64,000 nt of DNA from Escherichia coli (GTDB lineage: Bacteria > Pseudomonadota > Gammaproteobacteria > Enterobacterales > Enterobacteriaceae): assembly GCF_003334765.1 (NCBI RefSeq), contig NZ_QOWT01000001.1, one strand, 5' to 3'. Below are positions 16,911 to 57,006 of this stretch, in pieces; positions within the stretch are counted from its first letter, which is position 1, and each line of letters starts with the position of its first letter. The position numbers and the translations under genes are program-made. Below the pieces are notes generated by a model. That model saw only the letters and a list, made by a program, of their open reading frames with translations, was not told the origin of the DNA and ran no database searches.

Positions 16911-16973
16911 CTGATGACCACCACGCTTTTTATTGACCATTTTGCACGCAAACTGGAAAACCTGGCGTCGTCA

Positions 16974-16981
16974 TCTATTCT
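16974..16981 (+). promoter_or_regulatory. sigma-S type -10 element of sdsR
   Basis: CTATTCTT resembles the sigma-S extended -10 (CTATACT), about 7 nt upstream of the inferred SdsR 5' end. Confidence 0.45.
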
Positions 16982-16987
16982 TAAAGG

Positions 16988-17090
16988 GCAAGGCAACTAA
17001 GCCTGCATTAATGCCAACTTTTAGCGCACGGCTCTCTCCCAAGAGCCATTTCCCTGGACCGAATACAGGAATCGTGTTCGGTCTCTTTTT
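16988..17090 (+). ncRNA. sdsR: small RNA SdsR (RyeB)
   Basis: GCAAGGCAACUAAGCCUGCAUUAAUGCC...ACCGAAUACAGGAAUCGUGUUCGGUCUCUUUUU matches my recollection of SdsR, ending in an intrinsic terminator. Confidence 0.8.
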
Positions 17091-17224
17091 ATCTGTTAAA
17101 AGCCAGAAGCATTTCCTTCGCTGACTTTATAGTCAACCATAACACACACTCTACTGTCTGAGTCCAGCGTTTTTTAACATTCTTGTTAAGATTATGTGAT
17201 CTTTAGCGCGGGAGGAAAATATTG

Positions 17225-19971: not shown

Positions 19972-20050
19972 GAGCATGTACCACTGGCAAAAAAACAGGC
20001 GCGCAGTTTAGCATAAACGCTCCGGCGCAGGCACGCCGGAGCAGTGGGCA

Positions 20051-22684
20051 TTATTTGGGAAGCGCAGTTCCCCATTCACGCCACTCTTTCGGTTCACTTT
20101 CCTGCAACAGGAAGTGTTTGCCTTCCTGGGCTTTCGGTGCCAGTGGCGTACCCGGAGGCGTGGCGAAGGCGATGCCGCCACGGATAAACTGGTTAAAGGT
20201 GCCGGTTTTCACTACGCCGCCCGTCAGACCAAAGTCCAGACTGTAACCCGATGCCAACCAGAAGACGGAATTGTTACGCACCAGGTGTTGATAGCGTTTA
20301 CTGATGCGCATCGCAATCATCACGCGATCTGACAATGTCCCCAGCGTCATTCCTGTAACCGTACCGACTTCCAGACCACGGAACAGCACAGGCGTACCGA
20401 TGCCTAACGAACCGGCTTCCGGCGCTTCAACAATAATGCTTAAGCCATCCAGGTAACGCGAATCAGTAATGGTGGCCTCTTGTAATTCAAAGTCGCGGCG
20501 AGGATTGCCCCGGCCTGGTTCGACGTTGATATACGGCTGGAGGATAGTATCAAGATGCTCAACGCCAGCTGCCGAAATTTGCGGTGTGACCACTGAGAAG
20601 CGCGTACCACCGCGAGCAAAGGTCTGGACATATTCCGGGTAAAGTACCGCCTTTGCCTGTACTTCATTGCGTGCGGTAATCAGATCCAGCGTCTGGATTT
20701 GCCCGATATCAATACCGAGATAGCGAATTGGCATCCCGACCGCCAGTTTTCCGGCATCGAAAGCGTGAAGCGTAATCTGCCCGCCAACCGCACGGGCCGC
20801 TGTTTCGGAAGCATACAGAATACGCTTATCGCCTTTACGCTGACTGGCGCTGGCACCGCTGAGGTTGTCGAAGCTAATGGCTCCCTTTAATGCTCTGGAG
20901 AGCGGGGATGCCTGTACGGTCAGACCACTACCATTCAGCTGAACTTTCGCCCCGCCTTCTGCCCAGAACACGCTATTGCTGGTCAGAAGGTTGCGATACT
21001 CCGGCTTAATATGCAGATCGATATCAAACGCGTTAGCTCGCGGACGCACGGTAATCACTTCACCAACTTCAAATTTACGGTACAGCACTACCGATCCTGC
21101 CTGCACATCCGGCAGCGTCTCTGCACTCAAACTCACGGTTGTGGTGGGTAAATCGCTAAGGCTGTTCTCCAGCGCTTTTTCCAAATTGGCATACAGTGGA
21201 TAGCTGGCTTTCATCTCACCTTTATCGCCCGGCAGAATACGTATCCCGCCATTGATCCATTCTGAGGCGCTGGCACCGAGAAACTCAACGCCATCCAGCC
21301 CCACCTTCACATCGACACGGCTGTTGACGACAAATTTGCTATCGCCTTTTACCAGTTCGCGATGCTGAGGCTCGATGGCGACGGTAAAGGTGACGCCTTT
21401 GCTGGTGAGTTTACGATCGATAACCTGGCCTACCTGCACGCCGTGAAGAATGAGCGGCTGACCCGCATCAATACCGTAACTTTCCGGCGCGGTCAGGGTC
21501 AGCGTCAGAACATCAGGTTCATGCAGCAGTGCTTTTTCGCCTGGCACAACAACGAACTCTTTGCGTGGCTCGCCATCGCCGGGCACCAGCTCGAAGGTTT
21601 TGCCGGTCAGCAGGGCGCTGAGATTAGCATCGCTAAGGGATAATTTCGGGTTGCGTAATTCGATGCGGGTATTTTCACGAAGCAGGGTAACGACGCTGGG
21701 ATCAACGGTCATTTCCCCTGTGACTTTACCACCAGGATTTAAATCCAGTTTAGTCAGCTGTCCGACTTCCAGCCCCTGATACATTAACGGCGTCGAGTCG
21801 GCGGTTAATCCGGCCCCACTCGGCAGTTCCAGTTTTATTATTACGCCACGCTGGCTGTGGGCCAGATCTTCATACAGACCAAAGGTATCTTCCGCCTCGG
21901 CAGGTTTCGACTCTTCTGGTGAATCGAAGGCAATCGCACCGTTAACCAGTGCCGCCAGGCTTTCCAGTTTCACCTTCGCGCCACTGATACTGACGTTGGC
22001 ATCAACGCCGGAAACGTTCCAGAAACGGCTACCTTTTTTCACCAGATCGGTAAAACGCCGCTCGATCAGGACATCAATCACCACGCCTTGCTTGTTGGGA
22101 TTGATGGCATAGTCGTAGACTTTTCCCACCGGGATCTTGCGGAAATAGACCAATGAACCGCTGTTCAGCGAACCGAGATCGGGGGCTTGCAGGTGGATCA
22201 TCAGATCGCCATTGTCCAGCCGATATTTCGGTTGGGTATCGAGTGCGACAAAGTGATCCTGCTCTTTACCTTTACCCGGCATCATGCCGATATAGTTCCC
22301 ACCGACGAGGGCGTCCAGCCCGGAGACACCTGCCAACGATGCTTTTGGCGTCACCAGCCAGAACTGAGTCTCTTCGCGCAGCGCATCTTTCATATCGGAC
22401 TTGATGCTGACCTTGACTTCAATCTTACGAAGATCGTCGCTGAGGCTGATATCCTGCACTGTTCCGACTTCAACGCCCTGATAACGAACAGGCGTACGGC
22501 CTGGAACAATACCATCCGCCGACATAAAGTCGATGGTGACGGTATTACCCCGGTCCTGATAACTGTCCCAAATCAGCCAACTGGCAATCATTAGCGCGAT
22601 GAACGGCAGCAGCCAGAAAGGTGAGATACGGCGTTTATTTTTAATCTGCGCTTCAGTCGTCGAAGCGGGCGTTTCCTGACTCAT
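20051..22684 (-). CDS. letB: MCE-domain lipophilic envelope-spanning tunnel protein LetB (YebT)
   Basis: ORF-track frame 20051..22726; start placed at ATG 22682-22684 ([28 protein letters not shown]...) giving 877 aa with multiple tandem MCE-like repeats. Confidence 0.9.
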
Positions 22685-23936
22685 GTGCATCCCAAAGTAA
22701 GCGGCTGTCCAGCCATTCCACAGCAAGAATAGTCAAAATTACCGCTGCGCCGAAATAAAACGCAGCCGGTCCCATAGTAAAAGCGAGGATCTGATCGCGA
22801 TTAATCAGCGACATGGTTAAAGATATGACAAACAGGTCGAGCATCGACCAGCGACCAATCCAGGTCACCATCCGCAGTAACAGAATGCGTGTGCGTAAAC
22901 CTTGCTGGCATTTAAAATGAATGCTCAACAGTAAAGTGAACATGACGATCACTTTAGTAAACGGTACCAGAATACTGGCGATAAACACGATTCCTGCAAC
23001 CGCAATGTTGCTACTTGCCAGCGACATAATTCCGGAAAGAATTGTATCTTCCTGCCGTCCTCCGTTCAGATAAATGATAGAAATAGGCAACAGGTTGGCA
23101 GGTAACAATAAAACGATTGACGCTAACAGCGCCGCCCAGCATTTTTGCAGACTATGACGGCGACGCAGGCGTAGCGGGATATGGCAACGCGGGCAGCGAC
23201 CACGCTGATCTGGATAGCCGGTAAAATGGCACCCAAGACAGACACGAAGTTTCTCGTCCCTACGCGTAGCGGGGCGCTGCGGATAAAATCGCTCCCACAG
23301 TTCTTCGACATTAAGATGTGACAACGTCACCGTCGTTAAAATCACCAACGCCACAAAAGAGAACAAGCCGACACCAGCCTGGATATGGGCATAATCCTGT
23401 ACCTTTATAGAAGCAACGCCAATGCCGACCAGGTAGATATCGAGCATTACCCACTCTTTAAGTCGCTCAAGCATCAGCAGTACCGGACGTAAATTCATTC
23501 CCAGTCGGTTACCAAACCATAAATAAGCTATGGAGGTCACCAGAATGAGCGGGGCACCAATAACGCAGAAAAAGACCATCGACCCCGTTATCGCATCGCC
23601 CTGTTTGGTCATTTGCCAGATGCCTTGCATAACGTTGGCGTCAATACGAATGCCTAACAGCCAGATATGCAACAGCGGTTCGCCCCAGGCAAACGGCATA
23701 AGCAACAGCATGGTGAAGGCCATTGCCGCCAGGCGCGTTAGCGACCAGTCGCGCCCGTCACGAATTTTTGCCTGACAGCGCGGACAATAGGCACTTTGAT
23801 GAGAATTTATCTCGGGCAGGCTAAACAGCATGTCACATTGCGGGCAACGTTGGTAATCACCACGCGGCAGTTCCTCGCCGATTGCCCTCACTGTTATCTT
23901 TTTTGTCGGCGTAATTTGTGGTGTGTTAAGAGCCAT
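22653..23936 (-). CDS. letA: PqiA-family inner-membrane protein LetA (YebS)
   Basis: ORF 427 aa with CxxC zinc-ribbon pairs and multi-pass membrane segments; overlaps letB start by 32 nt. Confidence 0.9.
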
Positions 23937-24065
23937 GACGTGCCAAATGTAATAAGAATTAACATTAATCTTAACCCATGATGGGAATGATCTTGAGCAT
24001 TAACGCATTTAATGCTTATTTTAATAGGCTGGCAGATCCAGGTAAGACAACCAAGTGATTATATA

Positions 24066-50447: not shown

Positions 50448-52133
50448 TTGAAGAAGGTTTGGCTTAACCGTTATCCCGCGGACGTTCCGACGGAGATCAA
50501 CCCTGACCGTTATCAATCTCTGGTAGATATGTTTGAGCAGTCGGTCGCGCGCTACGCCGATCAACCTGCGTTTGTGAATATGGGGGAGGTAATGACCTTC
50601 CGCAAGCTGGAAGAACGCAGTCGCGCGTTTGCCGCTTATTTGCAACAAGGGTTGGGGCTGAAGAAAGGCGATCGCGTTGCGTTGATGATGCCTAATTTAT
50701 TGCAATATCCGGTGGCGCTGTTTGGCATTTTGCGTGCCGGGATGATCGTCGTAAACGTTAACCCGTTGTATACCCCGCGTGAGCTTGAGCATCAGCTTAA
50801 CGATAGCGGCGCATCGGCGATTGTTATCGTGTCTAACTTTGCTCACACACTGGAAAAAGTGGTTGATAAAACCGCCGTTCAGCACGTAATTCTGACCCGT
50901 ATGGGCGATCAGCTATCTACGGCAAAAGGCACGGTAGTCAATTTCGTTGTTAAATACATCAAGCGTTTGGTGCCGAAATACCATCTGCCAGATGCCATTT
51001 CATTTCGTAGCGCACTGCATAACGGCTACCGGATGCAGTACGTCAAACCCGAACTGGTGCCGGAAGATTTAGCTTTTCTGCAATACACCGGCGGCACCAC
51101 TGGTGTGGCGAAAGGCGCGATGCTGACTCACCGCAATATGCTGGCGAACCTGGAACAGGTTAACGCGACCTATGGTCCGCTGTTGCATCCGGGCAAAGAG
51201 CTGGTGGTGACGGCGCTGCCGCTGTATCACATTTTTGCCCTGACCATTAACTGCCTGCTGTTTATCGAACTGGGTGGGCAGAACCTGCTTATCACTAACC
51301 CGCGCGATATTCCAGGGTTGGTAAAAGAGTTAGCGAAATATCCGTTTACCGCTATCACGGGCGTTAACACCTTGTTCAATGCGTTGCTGAACAATAAAGA
51401 GTTCCAGCAGCTGGATTTCTCCAGTCTGCATCTTTCCGCAGGCGGTGGGATGCCAGTGCAGCAAGTGGTGGCAGAGCGTTGGGTGAAACTGACCGGACAG
51501 TATCTGCTGGAAGGCTATGGCCTTACCGAGTGTGCGCCGCTGGTCAGCGTTAACCCATATGATATTGATTATCATAGTGGTAGCATCGGTTTGCCGGTGC
51601 CGTCGACGGAAGCCAAACTGGTGGATGATGATGATAATGAAGTACCACCAGGTCAACCGGGTGAGCTTTGTGTCAAAGGACCGCAGGTGATGCTGGGTTA
51701 CTGGCAGCGTCCCGATGCTACCGATGAAATCATCAAAAATGGCTGGTTACACACCGGCGACATCGCGGTAATGGATGAAGAAGGATTCCTGCGCATTGTC
51801 GATCGTAAAAAAGACATGATTCTGGTTTCCGGTTTTAACGTCTATCCCAACGAGATTGAAGATGTCGTCATGCAGCATCCTGGCGTACAGGAAGTCGCGG
51901 CTGTTGGCGTACCTTCCGGCTCCAGTGGTGAAGCGGTGAAAATCTTCGTAGTGAAAAAAGATCCATCGCTTACCGAAGAGTCACTGGTGACTTTTTGCCG
52001 CCGTCAGCTCACGGGATACAAAGTACCGAAGCTGGTGGAGTTTCGTGATGAGTTACCGAAATCTAACGTCGGAAAAATTTTGCGACGAGAATTACGTGAC
52101 GAAGCGCGCGGCAAAGTGGACAATAAAGCCTGA
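50448..52133 (+). CDS. fadD: long-chain fatty-acid-CoA ligase
   Basis: ORF-track frame from 50382; annotated-length 561 aa starts at TTG 50448 ([22 protein letters not shown]...); AMP-binding signature [12 protein letters not shown]. Confidence 0.88.
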
Positions 52134-52153
52134 GCGTTAAGTCAGTCGTCAGA

Positions 52154-52178
52154 CGCCGGTTAATCCGGCGTTTTTTTT
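52154..52178 (+). terminator. intrinsic terminator downstream of fadD
   Basis: stem cgccgg/ccggcg followed by T8. Confidence 0.85.
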
Positions 52179-55560: not shown

Positions 55561-57006
55561 TCAGTTGTCGCCTTTGAATACGGTTCCCGCAGGGAGCACT
55601 GGCGTTTTTTCCAGGGCTTCAACCGGTGTCTGCGGGAGATAATGTTCAACTTGATGAGCCGGAATGTCGGCGTAATCCTGTTTCAGCCAGCGAATAAACC
55701 CGCCGACTTTCACCAGTAAAATGACGAGGAAGGGAAGGGCTGTGAGCACGACGGTGGTTTTCATCGTTTCCAGCGAAGCACCGGTAAACAAGATGGAAAG
55801 CGGGATCAGAGTGATCACCACGCACCAGAAAAGACGCAGCCCACGGTCAGGATCGTCACCTTCCTGGAGATTACGCGTACTGGTCGCCGCCATGGTGTAG
55901 GCCACTGCATCCATATGCGAGGCAAGGAAAATAATCATCACGCCCAGGTATGCGGCGAGGAACAATTTACCGGCTGGCAACGACATCAGAACTTGCTGTA
56001 CAGCTGTTTCGCCGCCCAGTGTTTCCAGCACCTGTGGGACGTTGATTACGCCATTGATAAACTGATGAATGGCATAGCTTTCCATTACGCCAAAGAAGAA
56101 CCAGCAACCGACGGTGCTGCCGAGGATCAGTCCCCAGATAACTTCTTTAATCTTACGACCGCGGGAAACGCGGGTGACAAACATTGCTACGCCAGGGGTG
56201 TATGAGATCCACCACAGCCAGTAGAAAACGGTCCAGTTGCGGGTAAATGAACCATCGCCAAGCGGATCGGTGAATAAGCTCATTTGCAGGAAGTTTTGCG
56301 TGGTCAGGCCGATGGCATTGATGATGCTGTTGGTAATAAATTCGGTTGGGCCGACAATCAGCACCAGTAATGGCAGCAGGAACGCGCCCCAGCCAACCAT
56401 TTTGCTCAGACGTTGCAAACCGTTGTTGATACCAATCCACGAGCTTAGGCAAAAAATGCCGCCGGAAAGCAGGATCACAAATGCCTGCACGGTGAAGTTA
56501 TCGGGTAAACCGGTCAGCGCGGAAAGCCCACGGGTAAAGGTTGCTGCGGTAACAACAAGGGAAATGGTCAGTGCGCCGACAGTGGCGATCAGGAACATCA
56601 AATCGACCAGTTTTCCCCATGGGCCTTGCGGGCGAACGCCGGTAATAGCAGCAATAATGCCGGAAAGGCTCAGACCTTTGTTTTTCCGCACATGAAAGTG
56701 ATAAGCCATGATTAATGAGGCCAGCGTATAAGTTGCCCAGGCGCTGATGCCCCAGTGGAAGAAAGAGTAGGGAACGCTAAATTCGAGTGCCTGTTGTGAA
56801 CGCGGTGCGATATTTAATCCAGGTGTTTGATAATAATAGGCCCATTCAGCAACCCCCCAATAAAGCGTAGAAGAACCTAAACCGGCACAAATAAACATAA
56901 ACAGCCAGGAGAGCGTGCTGTATTCCGGTTTTCCTTCGCCAAGACGAATATTGCCGTATTTACTGGTGGCTAAATAAATCACCAGTCCCATTGCCAGCAA
57001 AACCAA
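55561..57006 (-). CDS. yeaV: BCCT-family transporter YeaV
   Basis: ORF 481 aa beginning at TTG 57004-57006; an in-frame ATG 5 codons downstream is an alternative start. Confidence 0.8.

Follow-up and report, generated by a model that had tools for sequence, protein, structure and literature searches.

Positions 20051-23936 of the window (the whole 64-kb stretch of Escherichia coli DNA analysed here) carry two overlapping genes that are best explained, with very little room for doubt, as the chromosomal letAB (yebS-yebT) operon. The system itself is already known, its structure, 1:6 stoichiometry, zinc ribbons and 32-bp gene overlap having all been published (PMC13017536), and because the biology and structure of LetAB have been described in such detail the window adds nothing there. 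One detail alone is new: within letA the RNA around the letB start codon is strongly conserved, and the 54 nt of letA that precede the letB ATG look like an embedded initiation region for letB.

The coordinates are bounded exactly by the letB stop codon and the letA start codon, with both genes on the minus strand:

22653..23936, minus strand: letA (yebS) coding sequence, 427 aa, inner-membrane LetA with two ZnR+TMD modules (open reading frame, RefSeq)
20051..22684, minus strand: letB (yebT) coding sequence, 877 aa, MCE tunnel protein (open reading frame, RefSeq)

The DNA of this segment is 100% identical to that of E. coli K-12 MG1655, for which RefSeq annotates yebS (letA) and yebT (letB) at agreeing coordinates; there is thus no difference from MG1655 in the two genes, and the 64 kb around them shows 13 transitions relative to one MG1655 record, which points to a very close relative as the source and not necessarily to K-12 itself. 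A match to the segment is present in 5,425 of 5,426 complete E. coli genomes, and letB is the longest open reading frame of the window. The features of letAB at this locus are beyond chance, and no evidence runs contrary to its identity. The initial annotation, which had named the pair letA-letB (yebS-yebT) and called it a known system rather than a novel one, is borne out on both points, by the identity to MG1655, the RefSeq annotation and matches to PDB chains, and by the published LetAB structure (Nature 2026, PMC13017536). Plasmid-borne copies of letAB were considered and rejected: the eight "plasmid" records concerned are non-mobilizable, measure 0.26-5.4 Mb, and resemble chromosomes, or pieces of them, that were wrongly labelled.

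The operon is flanked by the following features:

23937..24065, no strand assigned: divergent intergenic region between letA and msrC, 129 nt, presumed promoter region (sequence, annotation)
20018..20043, minus strand: terminator-like GC-rich hairpin, 8 nt past the letB stop codon (consensus scan, pattern match only)

The hairpin has 11 pairs, eight of them G-C, followed by TTTATGC, and it is likely, judging from this pattern, to mark the end of the operon; the gap between letB and rsmF is 79 nt and contains no open reading frame. A sigma-70 consensus scan of 23937..24065 gave no match, and the Shine-Dalgarno sequence of letA is almost absent, with a duplex of only -1.5 kcal/mol.

LetA is 100% identical to residues 19-445 of PDB 9n8w chain A, scores 704.9 bits against TIGR00155 (cut-off 260.35), and contains two PqiA (Pfam PF04403) domains at residues 66-217 and 263-418, the two halves of the protein aligning to each other with 29% identity (E = 4e-16). 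Its features are:

23775..23846, minus strand: N-terminal zinc ribbon, C31/C34/C51/C54, CxxC-X16-CxxC (sequence motif)
23286..23741, minus strand: PqiA/LetA transmembrane module 1, residues 66-217 (PF04403, E = 1.3e-38)
23184..23240, minus strand: C-terminal zinc ribbon, C233/C236/C248/C251, CxxC-X11-CxxC (sequence motif)
22683..23150, minus strand: PqiA/LetA transmembrane module 2, residues 263-418 (PF04403, E = 8.4e-43)
22830-22856, minus strand: GRWSMLDLF motif, residues 361-369, within module 2 (position as published, PMC13017536)

Zinc ribbons have been defined as CXXC-Xn-CXXC units with n = 11-18 that precede each transmembrane module, and about two zinc atoms are bound by the ribbons of each LetA (PMC13017536); the tetracysteine units found here, with n = 16 and n = 11, fit this definition. 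The GRWSM-psi-D-psi-F motif of the LetA/PqiA family is found in the C-terminal module, with a weaker counterpart, WVMLDIY, at residues 162-168 of the N-terminal module, and K178, D181 and D367 occupy their published positions. The earlier description of LetA as a PqiA-like protein with CxxC zinc-ribbon pairs thus agrees with two PF04403 modules and two CxxC-Xn-CxxC units. That the protein is LetA rather than PqiA is indicated by its position adjoining and upstream of a seven-MCE letB, and by its score of 212 bits against the NCBIfam PqiA equivalog NF011683, below the cut-off of 562.

LetB matches PDB 9n8w_B from end to end (residues 1-877 to 1-877, 1955.7 bits), and its residues 46-877 match PDB 6v0c_A. 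The same annotation had credited the 877-aa product with many tandem MCE domains, and a domain search counted seven MCE/MlaD (Pfam PF02470) matches, whose independent E-values lie between 4.7e-19 and 1.5e-4:

22562..22630, minus strand: single N-terminal membrane-anchor helix, residues ~19-41 (hydropathy scan)
22274..22552, minus strand: MCE domain 1, residues 45-137, includes R63 (PF02470, E = 4.7e-19)
22025..22198, minus strand: MCE domain 2, residues 163-220 (PF02470, E = 6.9e-8)
21626..21847, minus strand: MCE domain 3, residues 280-353 (PF02470, E = 9.2e-10)
21320..21505, minus strand: MCE domain 4, residues 394-455 (PF02470, E = 4.8e-7)
20918..21145, minus strand: MCE domain 5, residues 514-589 (PF02470, E = 1.5e-4)
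20513..20779, minus strand: MCE domain 6, residues 636-724 (PF02470, E = 2.3e-12)
20261..20446, minus strand: MCE domain 7, residues 747-808 (PF02470, E = 9.7e-11)

Residues 19-41 are the only hydrophobic segment in the hydropathy scan, and the published structure contains six such anchor helices per complex (PMC13017536). R63, which faces the LetA pocket, and F468, W476, Y814 and F833, the tunnel residues used for the published cross-linking, are all present at their published positions. LetB-type proteins have been distinguished by 6-8 tandem MCE domains in one chain, as against three in PqiB (Santarossa et al., PMC13017536), and with seven MCE domains, a single N-terminal helix and matches to the solved chains the protein is of the LetB type. 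LetAB of K-12 (PDB 9n8w/9n8x; LetB 6v0c-6v0j) has the same number of domains, the same motifs and residue numbering, and the same 32-bp overlap.

The transport function of the complex is known from published work. LetB, held in the inner membrane by its one N-terminal helix, forms a hexamer with seven rings around a hydrophobic tunnel ~225 Å long that crosses the periplasm, the seven MCE domains stacking into seven rings because the protein assembles as a hexamer. In LetA two modules, each made of a zinc ribbon and four helices, form a pseudo-dimer whose fold is tetraspanin-like. Cryo-EM gives a stoichiometry of one LetA to six LetB, the single LetA lying under ring 1 and holding that ring open (PMC13017536). 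Entry of phospholipid into the tunnel needs LetA; phospholipids have been cross-linked inside the LetB tunnel in vivo in a LetA-dependent manner, and phosphatidylethanolamine is enriched in the purified LetAB complex (PMC13017536). Phospholipid is accepted as the cargo of LetAB, so that the earlier remark of a substrate "still debated" no longer applies to the cargo itself, in view of the cross-linking and the phosphatidylethanolamine enrichment, and stands for specificity, direction and energy coupling. In the published model, phospholipid from the cytoplasmic leaflet would enter the central cleft of LetA, travel along an amphipathic groove to the periplasmic pocket of LetA, where its head group would meet R63 of LetB, and be handed from this pocket into the LetB tunnel and on toward the outer membrane.

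LetAB could instead be a retrograde importer or a regulated conduit, with LetA gating LetB allosterically and lipid flowing from the outer to the inner membrane, an arrangement that we consider unlikely, if worth keeping in mind. Mla, a related system, is commonly held to be retrograde. Gating or retrograde flow is named by the authors of the LetAB study as an alternative reading of the LetA-dependent cross-linking, and they describe direction and energy coupling as unsettled (PMC13017536); against it, the route outlined by simulations and mutational scanning starts at the cytoplasmic leaflet and leads via LetA to the tunnel mouth (PMC13017536), and yebST single mutants showed no asymmetry defect.

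Among related systems, the comparison with pqiAB reveals a paralogous pair that is distinct in MCE count, third gene and spacing. LetA and PqiA are 29% identical over 397 residues (E = 2e-46) and have in common two ZnR+TMD modules and a GRWSM-type motif; LetB and PqiB are 33% identical over the membrane helix and MCE1-2, and gene order is A then B in both pairs. The phenotypes of LetAB are mild and largely redundant with those of pqiAB, and loss of both systems heightens sensitivity to cholate and lauryl sulfobetaine, which implies that the functions of LetAB and PqiABC overlap (PMC13017536). PqiB, however, has three MCE domains and a C-terminal helical region, whereas LetB has seven and no such tail; the pqi operon has a third gene, for the lipoprotein PqiC (DUF330), whereas no open reading frame follows letB; and pqiA and pqiB lie 4 nt apart, whereas letA and letB overlap. 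LetB scores 475 against the NCBIfam PqiB equivalog NF008070, below its cut-off of 525, and neither a three-MCE PqiB with a helical needle nor a downstream PqiC is found here.

MlaFEDB resembles LetAB in its MCE (MlaD) fold (PF02470), its hexameric phospholipid-binding rings, and an arginine that contacts the lipid head group as R63 of LetB does, but it has one MCE ring, the power of the ABC transporter MlaFE, and a soluble shuttle, MlaC, whereas LetAB has a continuous seven-ring tunnel, no ATPase, and a non-ABC, tetraspanin-like partner in LetA; the MlaD equivalog model scores 74, below the cut-off of 135. The mycobacterial Mce1-Mce4 systems are likewise MCE hexamers that form an envelope conduit for hydrophobic cargo, but these are hetero-hexamers of six single-MCE proteins that work with YrbE permeases and the MceG ATPase and import host lipids, whereas the LetB hexamer consists of six identical seven-MCE chains and works with LetA; TIGR00996 scores 84.8, below the cut-off of 140.5.

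At their junction the two genes overlap:

22653..22684, minus strand: end of letA overlapping the start of letB by 32 nt in another frame (sequence and translations)

The length previously given for this overlap is confirmed by the sequence, in which letA ends with TGA at 22655-22653, and the same figure (32 bp) appears in the LetAB structure paper (PMC13017536). An overlap is present in 80 of 80 Enterobacteriaceae loci (32 nt in 76, 44 nt in four) and in five of six distant relatives (37-50% identical), the sixth having a 25-nt gap; the distant relatives were taken from a search of 50%-cluster representatives, the list of homologues having given only relatives of at least 77% identity. All overlaps keep the same relative frame, 2 mod 3. 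The letB start codon lies two codons past the last conserved LetA motif, LDSRLLWD, and the position of the ATG relative to the corresponding D-S/T-R-x-x-W motif is identical in four distant relatives.

A stop codon near or overlapping the downstream start is characteristic of coupled pairs, and with their 32-nt overlap letA and letB have this arrangement. The initial annotation took the overlap to imply translational coupling; the overlap is real and conserved, while coupling is what would be inferred from it; the 1:6 ratio speaks against simple 1:1 re-initiation, and a refactored plasmid is functional. Under strict coupling, ribosomes ending letA would slide back 32 nt and re-initiate, tying LetB output one-to-one to that of LetA. 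The retention of the overlap in all close and most distant relatives, the constancy of its frame, and the weakness of the Shine-Dalgarno-like duplex of letB (-4.0 kcal/mol) are in keeping with such a scheme, but the complex needs six LetB per LetA, a ratio that strict termination and re-initiation cannot supply. A plasmid in which the letA and letB reading frames were refactored so as not to overlap was, moreover, the functional wild type in published complementation and mutational scanning (PMC13017536), and in one relative the overlap is replaced by a gap. In addition, 95% of synonymous recodings fold more strongly than the native letB start region, a low-structure signal that is marginal (5% and 13% tails); a start less structured than most of its recodings is unlike one that needs to be unmasked by an upstream ribosome. 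We therefore regard strict coupling as improbable.

The new detail concerns letA immediately upstream of the letB ATG:

22686..22739, minus strand: letA codons 400-417, synonymous-site constraint, proposed embedded letB translation-initiation region (codon entropy)
22690-22693, minus strand: GGGA Shine-Dalgarno-like element, in the Trp415-Asp416 codons of letA (sequence)

With codons threaded onto protein alignments from 75 Enterobacteriaceae, the codon entropy of codons 400-417 is 5.47 bits against 20.92 expected, so that synonymous variation is 26% of expectation, and none of 100,000 resamples is as low. Elsewhere in letA and letB no 16-codon window falls below 0.70 of expectation, and the 54 nt of low synonymous variation are unique within both genes. 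In the Trp415-Asp416 codons a change from TGG-GAT to TGG-GAC occurs naturally. We tentatively propose, as a possibility that falls somewhat short of an even chance, that codons 400-417 are a dedicated expression-control element, either an open initiation region or a regulator-binding site, which would set the 6:1 ratio of LetB to LetA independently of classical coupling. In this scheme the letB initiation region would be embedded in letA and kept comparatively unstructured, the Trp-Asp codons of the LDSRLLWD motif would supply the weak GGGA element to letB, and ribosomes would load letB independently, helped by those finishing letA, to yield about six LetB per LetA. The conserved overlap, the fixed place of the ATG after the D-S/T-R-x-x-W motif, the synonymous constraint and the weak native fold speak for it; the weakness of the GGGA duplex, the marginal low-structure signal, the unremarkable fold z-scores, the 25-nt gap in one relative and the working non-overlapping plasmid speak against it. 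No description of an embedded initiation or control element for letB was found in the literature searched.

Other sources of the synonymous freeze would be conserved RNA structure or some hidden coding feature, namely a sequestering helix, an N-terminal extension of LetB, or an internal promoter, any of which we judge very improbable. The minimum-energy fold does pair -54..-47 with +4..+11 around the AUG, but this long-range helix was rejected because common variants (T-to-A at -53 in 46 of 75 species, G-to-A at -50 in six of 75) break its pairs uncompensated and the fold z-scores of the junction are unremarkable (-1.2 and +1.3); nor did an Rfam search of the junction and leader match any known RNA family, even at E <= 1. 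Upstream of the ATG no stop codon interrupts the letB frame as far as a TTG at 22726 (position -42), a start that would give 891 aa in place of the 877 aa from the conserved and annotated ATG at 22684. This longer LetB was rejected in turn: variation at -38, -35, -23 and -5 is synonymous for LetA but alters amino acids in the letB frame, and this frame is closed by a stop 3-21 nt ahead of the ATG in distant relatives. Such closure also counts against a start at ATG 22690 (879 aa), which is moreover ACG in 15 of 75 species. As to an internal sigma-70 promoter, a TTGACT hexamer is present at -52..-47, but no -10 element stands at a workable spacing and a scan of the region found no promoter.

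Within the same stretch, a five-pair hairpin at -31..-18 (UGGCU-GGAC-AGCCG) fits all of the Enterobacteriaceae variants, and its sequence is lost in the relatives of 37-44% identity.

LetAB is among the few envelope-spanning phospholipid conduits of Gram-negative bacteria, and LetA is the founding example of a new transporter fold. If the embedded initiation region is real, it would provide a route from two overlapping genes to a 1:6 subunit ratio. There is also a practical caution, in that altering the 3' end of letA, by recoding or by deletion, touches a junction constrained at the nucleotide level.

The letA-letB operon (yebS-yebT) occupies 20051-23936, with the letB stop and the letA start as its exact ends, and yebT and yebS are annotated at matching positions in the MG1655 RefSeq record. 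Its principal features are:

22653-23936, minus strand: letA ORF, 427 aa, ATG start
20051-22684, minus strand: letB ORF, 877 aa from the conserved and annotated ATG at 22684
LetB residues 45-137, 163-220, 280-353, 394-455, 514-589, 636-724 and 747-808 (gene on minus strand): MCE domains, PF02470
22686-22739, minus strand: synonymous-constraint stretch, 54 nt, letA codons 400-417, from 75 Enterobacteriaceae

The initial annotation described this as a known system, and LetAB has indeed been characterised down to atomic structure, its 32-bp gene overlap included (PMC13017536). Over all 3,886 bases the identity to K-12 and other strains is 100%. Among 5,426 complete E. coli genomes, 5,425 have a match to the segment, which covers at least 80% of it in 5,424; one genome is without any letAB match. 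Matches were also found to eight records of a plasmid collection (H11-H18), all non-mobilizable and 0.26-5.4 Mb in size, which appear to be chromosomes, whole or in part, under a wrong plasmid label. Between lpxM and nimT the window is collinear with MG1655, and letB is its longest ORF, consistent with the claim that this is the largest envelope system there. The neighbours are kept even in distant relatives: among loci whose LetA is 37-50% identical, proQ-prc lies divergently upstream in three (L085, L087, L090), and rsmF lies directly downstream in L088 and L090 and one gene further in L091. A consensus scan of the 129-nt letA-msrC divergent spacer (23937-24065) gave no sigma-70 match; the minus strand has a perfect TATAAT at about 24058-24063, adjoining the msrC start codon. 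The letA start (23936, minus) is essentially without a Shine-Dalgarno sequence (best duplex -1.5 kcal/mol).

Compared with the MG1655 record NZ_CP032667.1, the window carries 13 substitutions, all transitions, with no indels and none in letAB (8858, 9913, 13475, 38358, 38508, 45355, 46582, 48268, 49464, 49936, 50397, 58728 and 63892). Positions 38000-62000 are 100.0% identical to natural isolates, for example strain H3, and the window therefore comes from a very close K-12 relative, not from NZ_CP032667.1. Elsewhere in the window, Rfam searches matched an antisense sRNA pair between yebY and pphA at 16950-17094 (SraC/RyeA, minus, 175 bits; SdsR/RyeB, plus, 114 bits), a full-length cspA thermoregulator at 32583-33043 (plus, 135 bits) in the region of yobF and a cold-shock-protein gene (cspE per PGAP in the MG1655 record), and the sroD sRNA at 52092-52177 (plus, 115 bits), which overlaps the 3' end of fadD (50448-52133) and extends into the fadD-rnd spacer. 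The BCCT transporter gene yeaV (55561-57042, minus) is flagged as a pseudogene ("missing N-terminus") in the RefSeq record of MG1655 that matches the window.

Both proteins are as first described. LetA, identical at every residue to PDB 9n8w chain A, consists of two PqiA modules (PF04403, E = 8e-43 and 1e-38) that are 29% identical to one another, and scores 704.9 bits against NCBIfam TIGR00155, "PqiA/YebS family transporter subunit" (cut-off 260). Its CxxC pairs are found as C31/C34-X16-C51/C54 and C233/C236-X11-C248/C251; judged by spacing, both units fit the published zinc-ribbon definition, CXXC-Xn-CXXC with n = 11-18 (PMC13017536). GRWSMLDLF (361-369), K178, D181 and D367 likewise occupy their published positions. 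The many tandem MCE domains attributed to the 877-aa LetB were recovered by domain search as seven separate Pfam MlaD/MCE matches, together with a single hydrophobic helix (residues 19-41); LetB aligns along its entire length with 9n8w_B and from residue 46 to residue 877 with 6v0c_A, with R63, F468, W476, Y814 and F833 at published positions.

The published complex comprises six LetB and one LetA, is about 290 A long, and encloses within seven MCE rings a hydrophobic tunnel of about 225 A, the first ring being held open by LetA beneath it (PMC13017536). LetA has tetraspanin-like membrane domains without kinship to known transporter folds, and each molecule binds roughly two zinc atoms; its metal-binding cysteines are essential for stability, the zinc ribbons being otherwise tolerant of change (PMC13017536). 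In the proposed cycle, a phospholipid would leave the cytoplasmic leaflet via the LetA cleft, pass along an amphipathic groove to a periplasmic pocket, and enter the tunnel once its head group had touched LetB R63 (PMC13017536). Phospholipid cross-linking within the tunnel in living cells is LetA-dependent, the purified complex is enriched in phosphatidylethanolamine and depleted of cardiolipin (PMC13017536), and the mutant phenotypes are mild and partly redundant with pqiAB. To call the substrate still debated is thus fair for specificity and direction, but overstated for the class of cargo, given the cross-linking inside the tunnel.

Comparison with pqiABC of NC_000913.3 showed a paralogous yet distinct locus. 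LetA and PqiA share their module layout (29% identity over 397 residues), and LetB and PqiB are 33% identical over the anchor helix and first two MCE domains; however, PqiB has three MCE domains followed by a C-terminal helical region, against seven in LetB. No third gene follows letB, from which rsmF is separated by 79 nt with a terminator-like hairpin (consensus scan), whereas pqiC comes next in pqi; and the A-B junction is a 4-nt gap in pqi rather than an overlap. Given these differences, and since neither LetA nor LetB reaches the NCBIfam equivalog cut-off for its counterpart, PqiA or PqiB, the locus is let and not pqi.

The initial annotation is accurate in its observation and sound in its interpretation; what had not been reported in the literature searched is confined to the letA-letB junction, namely a freeze of synonymous sites and the anchoring of the letB start codon. 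The minus strand there reads ...TGG GAT GCA CATG AGT CAG GAA ACG CCC GCT TCG ACG ACTGA, so that the letB ATG lies 32 nt upstream of the end of the letA TGA, in a different frame. In 80 loci drawn from various species of Enterobacteriaceae, with LetA 76-97% identical, the overlap is 32 nt in 76 (75 by the automated count, plus L061, scored at 31 nt because of a one-base shift in register although its junction sequence is the same) and 44 nt in four, owing to a displaced letA stop codon. In six distant relatives (37-50% identity, from a cluster-representative search) there are overlaps of 56, 38, 8, 11 and 38 nt and one gap of 25 nt; all overlaps equal 2 modulo 3. The letB ATG stands two codons past the conserved LetA motif D-(S/T)-R-x-x-W in E. 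coli and four of these six, and overlap length varies only because the unconserved LetA tail beyond the ATG varies in length. PqiA retains this protein motif (as FDPRLSWD) though pqiB starts elsewhere, so the motif belongs to the protein and the letB start was built onto it. The ATG of the 877-aa LetB is invariant among 75 species, while 15 of them carry ACG in place of the in-frame ATG that lies two codons further upstream.

Synonymous codon entropy, from codons threaded onto protein alignments of the 75 species, averages 1.2 bits per codon in letA and letB alike, and drops to 0.38 in letA codons 400-412 and 0.09 in codons 413-425. Corrected for amino-acid composition, codons 400-417 hold 5.47 bits against 20.92 expected (about 26%), with none of 100,000 resamples equally low; all 16-codon windows elsewhere in letA and letB reach at least 0.70 of expectation, making this the only such dip. 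These codons lie entirely upstream of the overlap, and dual coding therefore does not explain the freeze. Within them, Trp415-Asp416 (TGG-GAT) gives GGGA, a weak Shine-Dalgarno match (-4.0 kcal/mol) five bases before the letB ATG.

Other readings of the stretch fare poorly. The letB frame is open back to a TTG at 22726 (891 aa by ORF call), but the substitution pattern and closed frames in distant relatives argue against an N-terminal LetB extension. A helix enclosing the letB AUG, predicted by a fold program, is contradicted by frequent uncompensated variants. Neither a promoter (consensus scan) nor a known RNA family (Rfam) was found at the junction. Folding of the native 130-nt context yields -41.3 kcal/mol, whereas recoding codons 400-417 synonymously 1,000 times gives -47.1 +/- 3.6, and only 5% of the recodings fold as weakly. 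The SD/AUG segment is slightly more accessible, being unpaired with a probability of 0.50 compared with 0.40, and 13% of recodings are at least as open; the 81-nt core is no more stably folded than its shuffled versions (z = +1.3). Such predicted folding is suggestive of, although not strong evidence for, an open initiation region.

The overlap was taken to imply translational coupling. It is conserved, but the six LetB needed per LetA (PMC13017536) are a ratio that terminate-and-reinitiate coupling cannot supply, and a refactored plasmid in which the genes do not overlap serves as wild-type reference in functional assays (PMC13017536), so that the overlap is dispensable for function under plasmid expression. 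Because of this ratio and the suggestive openness, we favour a letB initiation region embedded in letA codons 400-417 over terminate-and-reinitiate coupling: a comparatively open region of this kind would recruit ribosomes by itself, and those arriving from upstream would at most help. The junction freeze and start-codon anchoring are a minor point on how the subunit stoichiometry of this complex may be set.
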